Counted from the first letter of the stretch, positions 11,950-43,145 are shown. The stretch: 64,000 bases of DNA from an uncultured Alphaproteobacteria bacterium (GCA_934254675.1 CAKQLP010000002.1:96596-160595); one strand, 5' to 3'. Program-made: numbers and translations. Notes: generated by a model from the letters alone, not told the origin.

Positions 11950-13041
11950 TTAATCCTTTCTAGGAACTTTAATATCCGCAAGTAAATCAAAACCGACATA
12001 CATTTGTCCGGTGCCAAAGCTATCTGCGGCGGAACTTTCACAGTATTTTGCGGCAGCCGCGGGGGAAACAGGTTTGAAACGCTGTTCTTTTGTTTCTATG
12101 CAATAATATTCTTGATCATCATTTTCATCGCAATTATAATCACCAACATCACTAGCATTAGCATATACAAATAGAACCCAAAATCCTAAAGTAGTTGGGT
12201 CGGCATCTTTTATCACAATTCCTTTCATATCAGCGTTTCGCCAATCATAAGTTAAAAGAGGTACGCATAAATTTTGGGGTACAAGAACACCGATAGATAA
12301 TGCAGAAAAACCACCTTCTTCATATTCTTCAGTGTATCCAAAGGGGTTGATAAGGGTTAAAGGAGAAGATAAACCAATCCTCTTTTCTCCTTCTAATTCA
12401 AAAATGTATTCTTGCGGTAAAAGCCCCATGTCTTGAATTTGATTATCAGCTCCTATTAGCCCTCCATCGAAAACATCATAAGCTTTTTGGCTGATATAAG
12501 CTGTTCGGATAGTGGCAGAAATATCGGAAATCATATTGACAATTTTATTGATATGAATTTTTTCCATGGCTTTAGTATAGCCGGCAATACCGCCAACGCT
12601 CAACACCCCGATGATGGCCAGAACGCCGAGCATTTCAATCATACTTCGCCCAATCGGGTTTGTCTGTCTGGTCACTGCTTGCGCTTTTCTCACTCGTGTA
12701 CCGCTTTGTACACGTCGTTCCAAAAGTGCGGCGCATTGACGCACAACATCCAAGCCCTTAGTGAAATTCTTCCTATTGTCATACTCGGGCTTGTCCCGAG
12801 TATCCACCATCAAGTCCATGTCATATTTAGGCTTAAAACACATCCTTCTCCTATTGTCATACTCGGGCTTGTCCCGAGTATCCATAGGAGTGTGTTCCGT
12901 ATTGATTCTCGGAATAAATCCGAGAATGACGTTTGTAAGGTGTTTTGTATGGATTCTCGGAATAAATCCGAGAATGACATTTAAAGTGTGTCCGAAAATG
13001 ACGGAGAATAGGGTATTCTGTTCATCCTTAAATTTTTTCAA
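11950..13041 (-). CDS. type IV pilin-like paralog 1, out of frame with its upstream SD/ATG at 13142 because of a (CT)7 tract
   Basis: Contains G-RSMIE-MLGVLAIIGVLSVGGIAGY (Gly at -1, Glu at +5, hydrophobic helix), then a divergent Cys-containing domain. The frame is open for 131 codons upstream of the Gly and is built of palindromic modules. Confidence 0.75.
   Translation of the reverse strand: MKKFKDEQNTLFSVIFGHTLNVILGFIPRIHTKHLTNVILGFIPRINTEHTPMDTRDKPEYDNRRRMCFKPKYDMDLMVDTRDKPEYDNRKNFTKGLDVVRQCAALLERRVQSGTRVRKAQAVTRQTNPIGRSMIEMLGVLAIIGVLSVGGIAGYTKAMEKIHINKIVNMISDISATIRTAYISQKAYDVFDGGLIGADNQIQDMGLLPQEYIFELEGEKRIGLSSPLTLINPFGYTEEYEEGGFSALSIGVLVPQNLCVPLLTYDWRNADMKGIVIKDADPTTLGFWVLFVYANASDVGDYNCDENDDQEYYCIETKEQRFKPVSPAAAAKYCESSAADSFGTGQMYVGFDLLADIKVPRKD
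12695..12975. repeat. cluster of 5 palindromic modules inside the leader of pilin-like gene 1
   Basis: CGTGTAC-N6-GTACACG (12695-12714). ATACTCGGG-CTTGT-CCCGAGTAT at 12781-12803 and 12859-12881. ATTCTCGGA-ATAAA-TCCGAGAAT at 12905-12927 and 12953-12975. Confidence 0.9.
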
Positions 13042-13156
13042 AAAGTGGCAAAAACCGCGTGTAGAAGCTTTAAAACGCTCTGAAATCGAATGTTTAGGAT
13101 TTACAGAGAGAGAGAGAGACCTTTTGATTGCTTATTTTTCATCTTTCTTTCCTCTT
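12998..13156 (-). other. conserved 5' expression cassette (SD AAGAGG, ATG 13142, (CT)7 13105-13118), copy 1 of 3
   Basis: About 150 nt nearly identical to 15053-15209 and 31596-31751. Confidence 0.85.
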
Positions 13157-14275: not shown

Positions 14276-15094
14276 TTATTTGGGAATATACATTCCAAAT
14301 ATACAATCTCCATCTTCGCAAGTAGAACAAGCTAAAGCTGTATCGGCAGGTGAAAATGGAATTTGTTTAATTTTTGAATTATTCTTAATAATCCAATTAC
14401 AATTAGTAAAATCGGGGGAGCAATAGGCTAAAGAGTTTGTTTCATCTGCAAAGTTTTCTAGCATTACCAATAATGGATTGAATGTTCGCCAATCAGATTG
14501 AGCTAACGCCATGCAGGATTCTTTTGAAGTTAAAAATAAGCCTAGCAAGAAAAAGTTTTCATCCATTGACAGGTTATCTTGAGCATTTCCAATAATAATA
14601 TCATTTCCAAAAGCGTCAAAAGCACTTAGTCTATCAGAGGCAATCATTTCATCAGGAATGATACCCATTTGAATAGCGGTTTCTGTGCTAAGGTTGTTAA
14701 AATCTTTCTGCTGGATGTAAAGTGTTTGGATATTATTTATTATCGTTGAAAATTGAGAAAGGACAGTGTTTGTTTTAAATTTAGTCATGGCTTTTGAGTA
14801 GCCGGCAATACCACCGACGCTCAACACACCGATGATGGCGAGGACGCCTAGCATTTCAATCATACTTCTGCCGCACTGCACGCCATCTGCTAGGAATTTT
14901 TGCGCTCGTGTACCTCTTTTGTACACGTCGCTTAAAAATCCCGTCGCATCTGGTGTACATTGTGGCAGAAGGTTGTTATTGTCATACTCGGGCGTGACCC
15001 GAGTATCCACAGAAGAGTGTTCCGCATGGATTCTCGGAATAAATCCGAGAATGACGGAGAATAGGGTATTCCGTTCCGACTCAAATTTTTTCAA
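14276..15094 (-). CDS. type IV pilin-like paralog 2, out of frame with its upstream SD/ATG at 15195 because of a (CT)7 tract
   Basis: QCG-RSMIEMLGVLAIIGVLSVGGIAGY motif and a divergent Cys-rich C-terminal domain. The leader carries palindromic modules. Confidence 0.75.
   Translation of the reverse strand: MKKFESERNTLFSVILGFIPRIHAEHSSVDTRVTPEYDNNNLLPQCTPDATGFLSDVYKRGTRAQKFLADGVQCGRSMIEMLGVLAIIGVLSVGGIAGYSKAMTKFKTNTVLSQFSTIINNIQTLYIQQKDFNNLSTETAIQMGIIPDEMIASDRLSAFDAFGNDIIIGNAQDNLSMDENFFLLGLFLTSKESCMALAQSDWRTFNPLLVMLENFADETNSLAYCSPDFTNCNWIIKNNSKIKQIPFSPADTALACSTCEDGDCIFGMYIPK
14907..15052. repeat. 3 palindromic modules in the leader of pilin-like gene 2
   Basis: CGTGTAC-N7-GTACACG (14907-14927), ATACTCGGG-CGTGA-CCCGAGTAT (14984-15006), ATTCTCGGA-ATAAA-TCCGAGAAT (15030-15052). 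Confidence 0.9.
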
Positions 15095-15209
15095 AAAGTG
15101 GCAAAAACCGCGTGTAGAAGCTTTAAAACGCCCTGAAATCGAATGTTTAGGATTTACAGAGAGAGAGAGAGGCCTTTGCTAAGCTTATTTTTCATCTTTC
15201 TTTCCTCTT
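15053..15209 (-). other. conserved 5' expression cassette (SD 15204-15209, ATG 15195, (CT)7 15158-15171), copy 2 of 3
   Basis: Nearly identical to 12998-13156 and 31596-31751. Confidence 0.85.
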
Positions 15210-15443
15210 AAAATAAATTGAAACTCTATTAAGTATTGTCAAAAATAGTAAAAATATATTTAAGATATATGTATGTAAAAATATTTCTTGCATAATAGAC
15301 GAAAACAACATACAATAAAGTCGTATTAAATAAGTATTATGGAAAAAATTATGGCAATTATCTGTGCTGTTTTCAAATCTTTCTAAGGAAGAAATGTCCA
15401 TTATGCTTATATTGAATGTTTAACTCCTTAATTTTTTCAAGAT

Positions 15444-20829: not shown

Positions 20830-21327
20830 ATGAGAAATGTAGAAAAAATGATAAAAACTAATGCGATGCGGATTGTGGAAACTACCAAAATTCCGTATAA
20901 GGTGTATGAGTATGAGGTGACCGACGGTGTTGACGCCAAAAGTGTGGCGCAATATTTGCAAAAGCCGGAGGAACAGGTGTTTAAAACATTGGTAACTCAA
21001 GCACCGACCGACCAACATGGTTTTATTTATTTTGTGTTTGTTATTCCGGCAAATGCCGAACTTAGCGTTAAAAAAGCCGCTCATGCCGCCGGTGTAAAAA
21101 ATTTGGAAATGCTGCCGCTGAAAAAACTTTTGCCGCTGACCGGATATGTGCACGGTGGGTGCTCTCCATTGGGAATGAAAAAACAATTTCCGGTTTTTAT
21201 TGATGAAACGGCGATATTGTTTGACACATTTTGCCTATCGGGCGGAAAAATTGGCATAACTCTTGAGTTAAATGCCGAAACTTTGGCAAAGGCAATCGGA
21301 GCAAAGTTTGCCGATTTAACACTTTGA
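20830..21327 (+). CDS. ybaK: Cys-tRNA(Pro)/Cys-tRNA(Cys) deacylase YbaK
   Basis: About 160 aa. KTLV..., GYVHGGCSPLG and FIDE motifs typical of the YbaK/ProX editing domain. Confidence 0.85.
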   Translation: MRNVEKMIKTNAMRIVETTKIPYKVYEYEVTDGVDAKSVAQYLQKPEEQVFKTLVTQAPTDQHGFIYFVFVIPANAELSVKKAAHAAGVKNLEMLPLKKLLPLTGYVHGGCSPLGMKKQFPVFIDETAILFDTFCLSGGKIGITLELNAETLAKAIGAKFADLTL

Positions 21328-21340
21328 AAGGAGTAAGAAA

Positions 21341-21775
21341 ATGAAATATTTATTAATGGTTTGTTTGTTATTTCCTCTGTCGGCGCAGGCATTTTGTTTG
21401 GGTGAGGTTGGCAGTCAGCGTACAAATGGATTGGGCGAAACCGAATATAGAAACAGCAGCGGACAATTGCTGGGAACATCCCGCCAGAACGGATTGGGTG
21501 AGACCGAATATCGCGACAACAGCGGTCAATTGGTCGGCACGGCCAGACAGAACGGATTGGGCGAGACCGAATATCGGGACAACAGCGGACGATTGTCCGG
21601 AACTTCTCGCCAAAATGGATTGGGAGATACCGAATATCGAAATGGTAACGGCGTGTTAGTTGGAACCTCTCGCGAAAACAGTCTTGGAGATACCGAATAT
21701 CGTGACAACACCGGCAGACTAAATAAAACATCTCATCAAAACGGATTGGGTGAGACAATTTATTATAATTACTAG
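21341..21775 (+). CDS. secreted tandem-repeat protein
   Basis: Signal peptide MKYLLMVCLLFPLSAQA, then five and a half copies of the 21-aa unit NGLGETEYR(D/N)xSGxLxGTxRQ. Confidence 0.75.
   Translation: MKYLLMVCLLFPLSAQAFCLGEVGSQRTNGLGETEYRNSSGQLLGTSRQNGLGETEYRDNSGQLVGTARQNGLGETEYRDNSGRLSGTSRQNGLGDTEYRNGNGVLVGTSRENSLGDTEYRDNTGRLNKTSHQNGLGETIYYNY
21425..21772 (+). repeat. 63-nt in-frame tandem repeat, about 5.5 copies
   Basis: Period of 21 codons read from the translation (N29, N50, N71, N92, N113, N134). Confidence 0.9.
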
Positions 21776-30482: not shown

Positions 30483-30518
30483 AAAAAGAGTCCCATGTTA
30501 CGGCATGGGACTCTTTTT
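30483..30518. terminator. bidirectional terminator between tig and pilin-like gene 3
   Basis: AAAAAGAGTCCCATG / CATGGGACTCTTTTT 15-bp stem. Confidence 0.85.
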
Positions 30519-31737
30519 AAGAAATAAAGTATAAAATTAAATCACAATTTTCAGTTGTGCAGCTTTTACAAAACTGGGTCATTTTTATCGGTGTCATGTT
30601 TTTAAAGCAGGTTTGTCGAGAGTCGGTACAATAGATTTTACCCCAAATAATAACATCAGTCGTATAATTGTTTTTTAATTCCAATCTAGAAATATTACCG
30701 TTTTCAGCATCAAAGGCTGTGATAGCTTTTATAATGTTTTTGCATTGATTTTCAGAACTTATGGCAAAAGCGTTATTTATGGTTTTAAGACTGATTCCCA
30801 AATAAAATGAGGTACTGTTACAAGGGGATAAAGAACCATCTGGTTGTCGGCATGTGTCAACACCATAAGATAAAATAAATTTATTTCCAAATCGATCCTG
30901 AGCAGTCTCATTAGAGATAAGCTTCATGTCGTCAGGTAAATATCCAAGAGCATTGATAGCGCCCATAAGGTCGTTTATTCTGATTGTTGATTGGTTACGG
31001 TAGTCTTGTTTGAAAGTGTCACGAAGTTCTAATATATGATAAATAAGGGAATTGATTTGTTCAAGTTGTTTGTGTGATTGATAAGTTTCCATGGCTTTGC
31101 TGAATCCCTGAATACCTCCGACGGATAGCACCCCAATAATGGTGAGAACGCCCAGCATTTCAATCATGCTTCGCCCAAGGGAAAACTCGTTTAGCTGGTG
31201 TCTGCTTGAAATTTTCGCGCTCGTGTACCTCTTTTGTACACGTCGCTTAAAAATTCCGGCGCATTCACGCACGCTATCCAAGTTTTCAAGTAAGATGTTA
31301 GGATTTTTTTCGCAGCTAGAAACCTCTTTATCTACACCACTCTCCGCGGTTTCAATACATTCATTTGTCTGTCTGGTCACTGCTTGCGCTTTTCTCACTC
31401 GTGTACTACTTTGTACACGTCGTTCCAAAATTGCGGCGCATTGACGCACGACATCCAAGCCCTTGATAAGACTCTGTTCTCTGTCATACTCGGGCTTGAC
31501 CCGAGTATCCAAAGAATAGTGTTTTGTATAGATTCTCGGAATAAATCCGAGAATGACGTTTAAAAATTGGTTAACATTTAAGGTGTGATTGAGAATGACG
31601 GAGAATAGGGTATTCCGTTCATCCTTAAATTTTTCCCAAAAGTGGCGAAAACCATGTGTAGAAGCTTTAAAACGCTCTGAAATCAAATGTTTAGGATTTA
31701 CAGAGAGAGAGAGACCTTTTGATTGCTTATTTTTCAT
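30517..31737 (-). CDS. type IV pilin-like paralog 3, intact and in frame from the cassette ATG ((CT)6), with a 188-codon leader
   Basis: MKNKQSKGLSLSVNPKH... runs through palindromic modules to LG-RSMIEMLGVLTIIGVLSVGGIQGF, then a divergent Cys-rich domain. SD AAGAGG lies 8 nt before the ATG. Confidence 0.8.
   Translation of the reverse strand: MKNKQSKGLSLSVNPKHLISERFKASTHGFRHFWEKFKDERNTLFSVILNHTLNVNQFLNVILGFIPRIYTKHYSLDTRVKPEYDREQSLIKGLDVVRQCAAILERRVQSSTRVRKAQAVTRQTNECIETAESGVDKEVSSCEKNPNILLENLDSVRECAGIFKRRVQKRYTSAKISSRHQLNEFSLGRSMIEMLGVLTIIGVLSVGGIQGFSKAMETYQSHKQLEQINSLIYHILELRDTFKQDYRNQSTIRINDLMGAINALGYLPDDMKLISNETAQDRFGNKFILSYGVDTCRQPDGSLSPCNSTSFYLGISLKTINNAFAISSENQCKNIIKAITAFDAENGNISRLELKNNYTTDVIIWGKIYCTDSRQTCFKNMTPIKMTQFCKSCTTENCDLILYFIS
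31222..31554. repeat. 4 palindromic modules in the leader of pilin-like gene 3
   Basis: CGTGTAC-N7-GTACACG (31222-31242), CGTGTAC-N6-GTACACG (31400-31419), ATACTCGGG-CTTGA-CCCGAGTAT (31486-31508), ATTCTCGGA-ATAAA-TCCGAGAAT (31532-31554). Confidence 0.9.
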
Positions 31738-31751
31738 CTTTCTTTCCTCTT
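31596..31751 (-). other. conserved 5' expression cassette (SD 31746-31751, ATG 31737, (CT)6 31702-31713), copy 3 of 3
   Basis: Nearly identical to the cassettes at 12998-13156 and 15053-15209 but one CT unit shorter. Confidence 0.85.
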
Positions 31752-39407: not shown

Positions 39408-39412
39408 TATCT

Positions 39413-39632
39413 CTAGATAAAGGAGGCTTTATCTAGGGCGTCGAAAACCCTTTCAAATAATAACTAGTCGCTTTTGAGCATAAGCGACTTTAAATAGTTT
39501 ATGCCGACTTCTGTTCTGTTGGACGGATGTCGGCTGAATAAGGCTATATGCTGAATAAGCCGAGCTGTTTTATATTTAGTTATTATTTGAACGGTTTTCG
39601 AACATCCGCCCGCTTAAAGCGGGTTTTGTTTT
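39413..39632 (+). ncRNA. unclassified hairpin-rich leader or sRNA ending in an intrinsic terminator, directly upstream of pilin-like gene 4
   Basis: Perfect hairpins CTAGATAAAG-GAGG-CTTTATCTAG (39413-39436) and AGTCGCTT-N8-AAGCGACT (39466-39489), plus GCCGAC...GTCGGC (39503-39534). Direct repeat CTGAATAAG x2. Terminator CCCGC-TTAAA-GCGGG followed by TTTTGTTTT (39609-39632). Confidence 0.5.
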
Positions 39633-39658
39633 GTATAACAATAAACGGAGTTGGAAAC

Positions 39659-40468
39659 ATGTTCAATAATTTGAAAAGAAAAATAATGTTTTGCTTAGAT
39701 AAAGTCATTTTCGGCTTTATTCCGAGAATCCACTTGAAACATCATGCTTTATGCTGTCATTATCGGGCTTGTCCCGATAATCTAGATCCTCGGGTCAAGC
39801 CCGAGGATGACAAGAGGTTGGTCAAGCCCGAGGATGACTATAAAATAGCGCAGTGCGGTCGTTCTATGATTGAAATGCTGGGTGTGCTCGCCATTATCGG
39901 TGTCCTGTCCGTCGGAGGTATTGCCGGTTATTCCAGCGCCATGGAAAAATGGAAATTAAATGAAACATTGGTTGGGTATAATCATTTGATGTACGGTCTT
40001 TTAGAGTATGAGGTTTCTTTAAGAACTTTGGAATCCGGCAGTGGATATTATTTATTAGAAGATGTTATTTCCAGCTTAAATCTATTGCCGGAAAATTGGA
40101 AAAATACTGGCGGCTTTATATATGATCCTGCGGGAAACCGCTTTCGCCCGTTTATTCGTCATAACCGTTTTGTTTTTGATGTATATATAGGAAATACGAA
40201 AAAAGTTGAAGATAAAAGAGTTCAAGATGCGTTTTCATATAAAATGTGCTTAAACCTTATGAGTAACTTGCTCAAACCGATGCATAATCTGATTTATATG
40301 ACAGGTATTTATAGAGACAGCGGTTATAATAAATATCTGTATGGGGATTCATCTTGTGATAATGAAGGACAAAAATGCTTGAGCGACGCAACATTGTCTG
40401 ATATGCAAAATATATGTAACTCTTGTGTGCTGAATGAAGAGTTTTGCATATTCCTTATAGAATTCTAA
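39659..40468 (+). CDS. type IV pilin-like paralog 4 (67-codon leader, no CT tract)
   Basis: GGAG lies 8 nt before ATG 39659. QCG-RSMIEMLGVLAIIGVLSVGGIAGY motif and a divergent Cys-containing C-terminal domain. The track ORF start at 39548 runs through the leader terminator and is rejected. Confidence 0.8.
   Translation: MFNNLKRKIMFCLDKVIFGFIPRIHLKHHALCCHYRACPDNLDPRVKPEDDKRLVKPEDDYKIAQCGRSMIEMLGVLAIIGVLSVGGIAGYSSAMEKWKLNETLVGYNHLMYGLLEYEVSLRTLESGSGYYLLEDVISSLNLLPENWKNTGGFIYDPAGNRFRPFIRHNRFVFDVYIGNTKKVEDKRVQDAFSYKMCLNLMSNLLKPMHNLIYMTGIYRDSGYNKYLYGDSSCDNEGQKCLSDATLSDMQNICNSCVLNEEFCIFLIEF
39707..39838. repeat. palindromic modules in the leader of pilin-like gene 4
   Basis: Degenerate ATTTTCGGC-TTTAT-TCCGAGAAT (39707-39729), ATTATCGGG-CTTGT-CCCGATAAT (39759-39781), ATCCTCGGG-TCAAG-CCCGAGGAT (39786-39808), half copy GTCAAGCCCGAGGATGAC (39820-39838). 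Confidence 0.9.
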
Positions 40469-42965: not shown

Positions 42966-43145
42966 ATGCTTATAGCTTTCATTCTTAACCATACTTTAAA
43001 TGTCATTATCGGGCTTGTCCCGATAATCTGGATCCTCGAGTCAAACCCGAGGATGACAATAGGAAGAGGATGTGCGCCATACCCGAGGATGACAATATTA
43101 AAGGGGCATGTGTTAAGTCCGAGGATGACGAGAGTAGTGATGTAA
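42966..43145 (+). pseudogene. orphan pilin-leader remnant: palindromic-module cluster without a pilin body
   Basis: 59-codon ORF MLIAFILNHTLNVI... matches the leader segment SVILNHTLNV of locus 3. Modules are ATTATCGGG-CTTGT-CCCGATAAT (43005-43027), ATCCTCGAG-TCAAA-CCCGAGGAT (43032-43054), and two half copies ending GAGGATGAC. No GRSMIEM helix follows. Confidence 0.6.

Follow-up and report, generated by a model that had tools for sequence, protein, structure and literature searches.

A putative CT-repeat switch ahead of a type IVb pilin-like gene in an uncultured gut alphaproteobacterium

A 64,000-nucleotide stretch of DNA from an uncultured Alphaproteobacteria bacterium (GCA_934254675.1 CAKQLP010000002.1:96596-160595; the window, in what follows) carries on its minus strand, at 14276-15209, a gene for a type IVb pilin-like protein in which the start codon is followed by the dinucleotide repeat (CT)7. 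We conclude that this gene, locus 2, is most probably a contingency locus that undergoes translational phase variation by slipped-strand mispairing. Features of such loci are found here: the repeat lies in the 5' coding region, its length alone shifts the reading frame, and the same locus is ON in one relative and OFF in others.

The mechanism that we propose rests on the position of the only conserved Shine-Dalgarno (SD) sequence and ATG, which sit 24 nucleotides (nt) 5' of the (CT)n tract, making the tract part of the reading frame. When n is divisible by 3 (6 or 9), translation would yield MKNKLSKG-(LS)n, followed by a disposable leader, the GRSMIEML prepilin motif (cut at G/R), and the pilin domain; when n is 7 or 8, the ribosome would stop 1-4 codons past the tract and no pilin would be made. 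Slipped-strand mispairing in replication would add or remove CT units and thereby switch each locus ON or OFF, heritably and reversibly, and locus 2, at n = 7, would be OFF and a single contraction from ON. With dozens of cassettes per genome, each with a different pilin domain and nearly all at 7 or 8 units in the consensus, a population could thereby express varying subsets of pilins. Slippage and switching within a lineage are inferred, as is a role in adhesion or antigenic variation in the gut, which such switching may serve.

The repeat tract and the reading frame

An earlier note on this DNA had described an SD sequence, an ATG, seven further codons, (CT)7, and a TAA on the minus strand, and each of these elements is in place. 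The SD sequence, AAGAGG (15204-15209), stands 8 nt 5' of the ATG within AAGAGGAAAGAAAG, a block common to all cassettes of the family, and the same motif is used by a bona fide neighbor, the ThiF-family gene (13314). The start codon (15195-15193) and the seven codons for K N K L S K G (AAA AAT AAG CTT AGC AAA GGC; 15172-15195 together with the ATG) run into the (CT)7 tract (15158-15171), the proposed switch. This is an uninterrupted short repeat between the start codon and the pilin domain, 24 nt after the ATG, and with seven units the frame set by the ATG differs by 2 from that of the pilin (OFF). CTG and then the stop codon TAA (15154-15156) end the product, so that translation from the ATG at 15195 gives the 13-codon MKNKLSKGLSLSL. 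The sequence GTAAATCCTAA is the source of early stops in both OFF frames, within 1-4 codons of the tract. Read with an offset of 2, the same DNA gives VNPKHSISGRFKAS...GVQCGRSMIEMLGVLAIIGVLSVGG... (VNPKHSISGRF...GRSMIEML...) and has no stop until 14276, a frame of 293 codons that is open from the first base past the tract. An open reading frame (ORF) finder enters locus 2 as 14276-15094, with 272 amino acids (aa) and a TTG start. The 101-nt distance from the ATG to this TTG was reproduced (15195-15094), and so was the 305-codon ORF expected from the loss of one CT: when the tract was edited in silico, (CT)6 gave an ORF of 305 aa and (CT)9 one of 307 aa.

Relatives of the cassette were collected by scanning species-representative genomes with its SD-ATG segment, which gave at least 108 stretches, and JGI metagenome contigs with a general cassette pattern, which gave 95 further contigs; a pattern specific to the upstream region of locus 2 had no matches (0) in the JGI metagenomes. 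The frame census covered 122 distinct loci with a recognizable pilin ORF, and in every one of them (122/122) the pilin frame was predicted by tract length (n mod 3), in agreement with the ON/OFF reading of the earlier note. The pilin is in frame 0 (ON) at n = 6 (5 loci) and n = 9 (1 locus), in frame 2 (OFF) at n = 7 (79 loci and 2 of equivalent length), and in frame 1 (OFF) at n = 8 (35 loci), which leaves 6/122 loci ON.

Such concordance between tract and frame would also be expected from homology downstream of the tract alone, and we therefore place the weight on the open leader, the ribosome site, and the ON alleles and mutation of the tract. These bear on the main rival explanation, tract-independent internal initiation, according to which the ATG-(CT)n unit would be only a short upstream ORF or 5' leader and the pilin would be made at any tract length. 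In its favor, gene callers place the starts at internal TTG, ATG, and GTG codons (MKKFESE, MISERFKAS, MDTR...), locus 1, a sister cassette in the window, has one internal ATG after AGGAGAAGG, and the leader is presumably cleaved, so any in-frame upstream start could yield a functional prepilin. Against this, the upstream ATG is the only start with a conserved SD sequence: 82 of the 122 loci are without any internal in-frame start accompanied by an SD-like motif, and elsewhere such starts occur at scattered, non-conserved positions. The SD sequence, the ATG, and KNK are retained exactly across species with differing promoters and downstream sequence, partly by construction since the search pattern demanded them. 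Further, the pilin frame has no stop all the way back to the tract, and not just from an internal start. An unbroken ORF from tract to pilin stop is present at 107 of the 113 loci with enough downstream sequence, and the 13,948 leader codons contain 0 stops in the pilin frame, compared with 743 and 1164 in the remaining frames; construction contributes to the zero and not to the count of 107/113. These figures indicate that the leader is translated. Overall, we consider internal initiation unlikely.

The reading of the tract as a switch also draws on variation at the locus itself. Orthologues of locus 2 were defined by an identical 35-nt unique upstream segment and by their ThiF and GT4 neighbors. 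The earlier note had made its proposal depend on heterogeneity in repeat length, and these syntenic orthologues do vary: the tract is (CT)7 in the window, L001, and L002 (all OFF), (CT)8 in L115 (OFF), and (CT)9 in L112, which is ON and has a called gene of 315 aa that starts MKNKLSKGLSLSLSVNPKH. In L113 (1990) and L114 (1822) a C-to-A change has produced CTAT(CT)5, and both are OFF because the total length equals that of (CT)7. A pure repeat of this reduced length should make switching slower, and this allele is presumably stabilized and possibly locked OFF. Orthologues of locus 1 have 7 or 8 CT units, and near-identical pairs of loci differ at the tract: L130 (7) and L163 (8), L053 (8) and L204 (7), and L030 (7) and L180 (6, ON). 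Judged by these comparisons, mutation is faster at the tract than in the sequence around it, and the orthologues of locus 2 include ON alleles. At the protein level, ON forms are present in public assemblies: 19 of the 120 best homologues start with MKNK, and the rest are called from arbitrary internal codons; the tract segments of the MKNK homologues read GLSV, GLSLSV, GLSLSLSV, and GLSLSLSLSV, corresponding to n = 3, 6, 9, and 12 (ON). In rare homologues (P0042, MKNEQSKGLNPKH...; P0096, MKNKLSKGFSENPKH...) the tract has been lost and the ATG kept in frame, and the LS repeat is therefore dispensable for the protein.

The ATG frame of locus 2 ends after 13 codons, OFF is the consensus in every assembly of the window's strain, and a few members of the family are truly truncated (L039, L041, L082, L088, L098, and L151), all of which would suit a pseudogene, that is, a decaying paralogue with a fixed frameshift that falls by chance within the repeat. 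We regard this as very improbable, because the lesion is at the tract alone, with 293 intact downstream codons here and likewise at 107/113 loci, whereas a decaying gene would accumulate stops and frameshifts throughout its length. The intact ORFs also give no sign of relaxed constraint on the mature pilin domain. The syntenic orthologue that is ON with (CT)9 comes from another sample, and the pilin core is invariant across 91 homologues.

That 116 of the 122 loci are out of frame in the consensus could instead be read as the normal expressed state, if programmed ribosomal frameshifting or transcriptional slippage on (CT)7 restored the frame with no change in DNA length. However, (CT)7 would require a shift of -1 and (CT)8 one of +1, and one programmed mechanism cannot do both. 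The tract offers no slippery heptamer and no homopolymer run, a stop follows it directly, and length variants, in-frame ones included, occur in the DNA at the same locus. Frameshifting of this sort thus seems more improbable still than decay.

Least probable of all, to the point of being barely credible, is that the extra CT unit is an artefact of sequencing or assembly. Dinucleotide repeats are error-prone on some platforms, and many contigs break at the cassette. Nevertheless, the identical (CT)7 recurs in independent assemblies of the same strain from different samples, which bears out the earlier argument against a sequencing error; one frame rule holds for 122 loci whose lengths are only 7/8 or 6/9, and random errors would not avoid multiples of three. 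The same-strain contigs, recovered via ThiF and via the 244-aa product, are all (CT)7 and therefore provide no information on heterogeneity.

The pilin-like product and its leader

The product of locus 2 is a type IVb pilin-like protein, as judged from its sequence and predicted fold, and several lines of evidence agree with the earlier note in this regard. The Pfam family Bundlin (PF05307) matches it with 40.2 bits against a cutoff of 22.3 (5e-10), the PilS N-terminal family also matches, and the closest solved relative by sequence is BfpA (1zwt, E = 0.005). NCBIfam prepilin profiles, including TIGR02532, gave weak matches, all below cutoff. The 198 residues from Gly(-1) onward were modeled with AlphaFold (pLDDT 84, pTM 0.79), and in a Foldseek search of the PDB with this model the hits at ranks 1-15 were all type IVb pilins, namely Salmonella PilS, CofA of enterotoxigenic Escherichia coli (ETEC), and Vibrio TcpA. 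For these 15 the probability was 0.51-1.00 (at least 0.96 for ranks 1-14), and the template-modeling (TM) score was 0.41-0.62.

The processing motif GRSMIE (14855-14872), with Gly at -1, Glu at +5, and the cut at G/R, leads into the mature type IVb pilin-like domain of 197 aa and its stop codon (14276-14869). Sequence, fold, and mature length (~180-200 aa expected) are all those of the type IVb domain, and the class III signal-peptide site with its hydrophobic alpha-1 helix, G/RSMIEMLGVLAIIGVLSVGG (cut after Gly), is likewise as in type IVb pilins. Aligned across 91 family members, the segment G-R-S-M-I-E-M-L-G-V-L-A-I-I-G-V-L-S-V-G-G shows no or almost no variation: conservation is at least 90% at G1, R2, and S3 and complete at M4 I5 E6 M7 L8 G9. 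Three cysteines are also nearly invariant across the 91 sequences. A prepilin peptidase would be expected to cleave at G/R, and the product could then be assembled into a pilus.

Between tract and motif lies the leader-coding region (14873-15157), which runs in the pilin frame from the first base past the tract to the codon before that of Gly(-1) (14872-14870), is open throughout, and contains conserved modules. The extreme N-terminus, MKNKLSKG, is basic and is succeeded by a long modular sequence; counted from the start codon to Gly(-1), the leader of locus 2 has ~108 residues, and across the family there are 52-303 codons after the tract. The leader is built of units with perfect 9-bp inverted repeats, and the number of units varies by locus, always in multiples of three bases. 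At locus 2, module 1 (ATTCTCGGA-loop-TCCGAGAAT, 15029-15052) encodes VILGFIPRIH, and module 2 (ATACTCGGG-loop-CCCGAGTAT, 14981-15007) encodes DTRVTPEYD (DTRVxPEYD in the family). A third inverted repeat, CGTGTAC-AAAAGAG-GTACACG (14907-14927), has a motif that recurs in loci 1 and 3, the two sister cassettes in the window. All three elements lie on the minus strand. Because the stems covary between species, as in ATTCTAGGC/GCCTAGAAT and ATTCTTGGG/CCCAAGAAT, the level at which the palindromes are maintained is that of the nucleic acid. Compared with shuffled sequence, the RNA of the locus 2 leader folds much more strongly (z = -6.6).

Among the homologues P0001, P0121, and P0122 (orthologues of locus 3, 30517-31737), which come from closely related assemblies, near-identical mature pilins stand behind leaders of differing modules; some of these proteins are ON (MKNK...), and some are called from internal starts. 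The same pilin behind different leaders indicates recombination within leaders, and it is a speculation that the leader units themselves serve as recombination substrates. In the window, a copy of the palindromic unit, ATTATCGGG-CTTGT-CCCGATAAT, lies outside any pilin leader, between an Lnb_N-domain gene and recG (43004-43026). The units thus occur beyond the leaders and may form an element family of REP- or RPE-like type.

Several observations weigh against locus 2 being a phase-variable type IVb pilin gene. The short, positively charged leader (up to ~30 residues) of type IVb prepilins is missing, its place being taken by the ~108 residues described above, and to our knowledge this length (up to 300 residues in paralogues) far exceeds that of any characterized prepilin leader. 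Within the first 30 leader codons, substitutions between paralogues are mostly non-synonymous, and the leader is therefore kept open and not conserved as a protein. Motif and family searches of the 64-kb window found no pilus machinery and no prepilin peptidase; in relatives, a lone T2SSE ATPase beside a cassette, which came from a looser search, is the sole machinery of pilus or secretion type seen. Six assemblies of the exact locus 2 allele all appear OFF, and the proteins that loci 1 and 2 would encode when ON, at (CT)6 and at (CT)9, had no exact match among 15 billion proteins. Finally, tract lengths fall in a narrow, unimodal distribution (5, 81, 35, and 1 loci for n = 6-9). The small number of ON loci (6/122) is extreme when compared with a crude null of one third ON, and it fits an arrangement in which each locus is ON in a minority of cells; given the shape of the distribution, we do not treat it as proof of selection, and the deficit may be partly the tail of a mutational equilibrium.

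The ATPase in question is a 318-aa protein of the T2SSE family (PF00437, 2e-32) which, together with a 198-aa ORF, adjoins the pilin cassette in L045 (5953-6909) and also in L031, L032, and L055.

Sister cassettes, family size, and genomic setting

The earlier note had envisaged a set of three switch loci in this region. The cassette is indeed present three times, and loci 1 and 2 are both OFF; as a refinement, locus 3 has (CT)6 and is in frame. The window contains three tracts of at least (CT)6 (13105-13118, 15158-15171, and 31702-31713), compared with 0 in 100 shuffles, and all three sit within the same conserved cassette. Locus 1 (11950-13156, minus strand), 2 kb from locus 2, has its ATG at 13142 and (CT)7 at 13105-13118 and is OFF; its pilin domain is different, and its product would be 396 aa long if the tract were (CT)6. 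Locus 3 (30517-31751, minus strand) has its ATG at 31737 and (CT)6 at 31702-31713 and is ON, with an uninterrupted 406-aa ORF (30517-31737). Because loci 1 and 2 are OFF with (CT)7 and locus 3 is ON with (CT)6, the window holds both switch states.

A fourth pilin paralogue on the plus strand (39659-40468) has the same GRSMIEMLGVLAIIGVLSVGG core and palindromic leader modules; it starts MFNNLKRK..., has no CT tract, and may not be phase-variable. The region 5' of it (39410-39640, plus strand) has several hairpins and a terminator-like GCCCGCTTAAAGCGGGTTTTGTTTTG and resembles either a small structured RNA or a cluster of terminators. Rfam matched one tRNA-Leu in the whole window and nothing at the cassette; sub-threshold matches near 39.5 kb (sRNA-Xcc1, 24.5 bits against a gathering score of 53) were dismissed as not credible.

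The three loci of the window gave too low a figure for the scale of the system, which the earlier note had underestimated: the family runs to dozens of cassettes per genome. The metagenome-assembled genome (MAG) CAKQRZ, of ~1.8 Mb by rough estimate, has at least 43 cassettes. Its 42 readable tracts comprise 22 (CT)7, 19 (CT)8, and 1 (CT)9, and all cassettes with an intact pilin ORF are OFF (38/38). Among the matches listed from the species-representative genomes, almost all are from MAGs labeled as uncultured Alphaproteobacteria from the human gut (Hadza and HGM sets), with some contigs binned under other names. Contigs often end in or just past the cassette or its CT tract (L010, L018, L024, L044, L059, L065, L070, L084, and many metagenome contigs), and assembly of these genomes breaks systematically at this multi-copy 5' cassette.

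The window has a guanine-plus-cytosine (GC) content of ~38% and is core chromosome, with uvrB, lepB, rnc, era, rplM/rpsI, gyrA, thrS, mdh, tig, prfC, gltX, dnaG, mfd, and recG. The pilin loci are dispersed among these housekeeping genes, and locus 2 lies between the ThiF-family gene and a GT4 glycosyltransferase gene. Upstream of locus 2, a promoter scan found ordinary AT-rich matches only. In sister species (L013, L014, L019, L033, L015, L030, and others) the cassette also contains, at roughly -65 to -30 relative to the ATG, a conserved promoter of sigma-70 type, TTGACT-N18-TAGAAT with TG upstream; this promoter, clear in the sister species, was not found in the window's species, in which conservation among paralogues begins only ~20 nt before the ATG. 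A 69-codon AT-rich ORF on the minus strand (15192-15401), which ends in an ATGA overlap with the pilin start of locus 2, is annotated as a gene in L112 and lacks conservation among paralogues; it is probably spurious. Elsewhere in the window, ORFs that overlap on the two strands (21341-21775, plus; 21081-21758, minus) enclose a 63-bp tandem repeat (21428-21640; 3.4 copies, 79% identity), and the minus-strand ORF had no Pfam match. A literature search found no description of this CT-switched pilin family; PMC12306168 is about a different reduced-genome alphaproteobacterial order.

Comparison with known systems

The mechanism proposed for locus 2 is a known one, and what is new is the setting in uncultured low-GC gut Alphaproteobacteria, the scale, the cargo of complete type IVb pilins, and the long palindromic leader. 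Phase variation driven by repeats is textbook knowledge for a few pathogens of mucosal surfaces, such as Neisseria, Haemophilus, Helicobacter, Campylobacter, and Mycoplasma. In Helicobacter pylori, genes for outer-membrane proteins (oipA/hopH, sabA, sabB, hopZ, and babB) have 5' CT repeats and are switched in frame by slipped-strand mispairing. The likeness extends to the CT unit, its position just past the start codon, the logic of in-frame and out-of-frame lengths, and the host-adapted bacterium with a small genome. In contrast to the cassettes described here, the H. pylori products are beta-barrel adhesins with Sec signal peptides, encoded at a handful of loci with no long modular leader, and the organism is an epsilonproteobacterium.

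The opa genes of Neisseria have CTCTT repeats in the region that encodes the leader peptide, number ~11 loci, and undergo recombination between paralogues. Like the present family, they are dispersed loci for surface proteins, each with its own pyrimidine repeat in the leader region, switching independently and with most loci OFF; recombination between opa paralogues has its parallel here in the mosaicism of leaders (P0001 versus P0121). The repeat in opa is a pentamer, however, there are ~11 loci rather than at least 40, and the product is an outer-membrane adhesin and not a pilin. Other systems vary the pilus itself, including gene conversion between Neisseria pilE and pilS, the poly-G tract of pilC, and the R64 PilV shufflon. 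The apparent purpose, varying a pilus protein, is shared with these systems, but in them one expression locus is recombined or an accessory protein is switched, whereas here each complete pilin gene has its own repeat switch. As to the cargo, the likeness to type IVb pilins (BfpA bundlin, TcpA, CofA, and Salmonella PilS) lies in the fold, the GxxxxE hydrophobic N-terminal helix (cut after Gly), and the mature length of ~197 aa, and the difference lies in the leader, of up to ~30 residues in those prepilins and 52-303 after the tract here.

The at least 43 cassettes in a MAG of ~1.8 Mb rival the largest known bacterial families of variable antigens, and a family of pilin switches implies strong pressure from host or phage on the pili of a supposed commensal. 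There are also practical consequences. Because of the CT switch, hundreds of "hypothetical proteins" of gut metagenomes have been called from arbitrary internal codons; because the cassette is multi-copy, assemblies of these genomes break at it. In metagenomic reads, the tract length of each locus is a ready marker of population structure.

A further, more tentative possibility, which we think somewhat less likely than not to hold in full, is a stochastic choice of one pilin among many. On this proposal, at least 40 complete major-pilin genes would be distributed among the housekeeping genes, each needing a single slippage step to turn ON (7 to 6, or 8 to 9), with about one expressed per cell on average, and the long leader of covarying palindromes, which occur in both orientations, would act as a disposable, recombination-prone adaptor through which switch cassettes and pilin domains are reshuffled. 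If this is true, a commensal lineage that is still uncultured would use type IV pili for a bacterial equivalent of vlhA- or var-type repertoires. Comparable in scale is the vlhA family of Mycoplasma gallisepticum, with tens of paralogues, each with its own GAA repeat, in a repertoire that is OFF by default and expressed only at particular repeat numbers (PMC6258824), as would be the case here. Unlike the CT tract of locus 2, the vlhA repeat is a trinucleotide that lies 5' of the promoter and affects transcription, and the vlhA genes encode lipoproteins.

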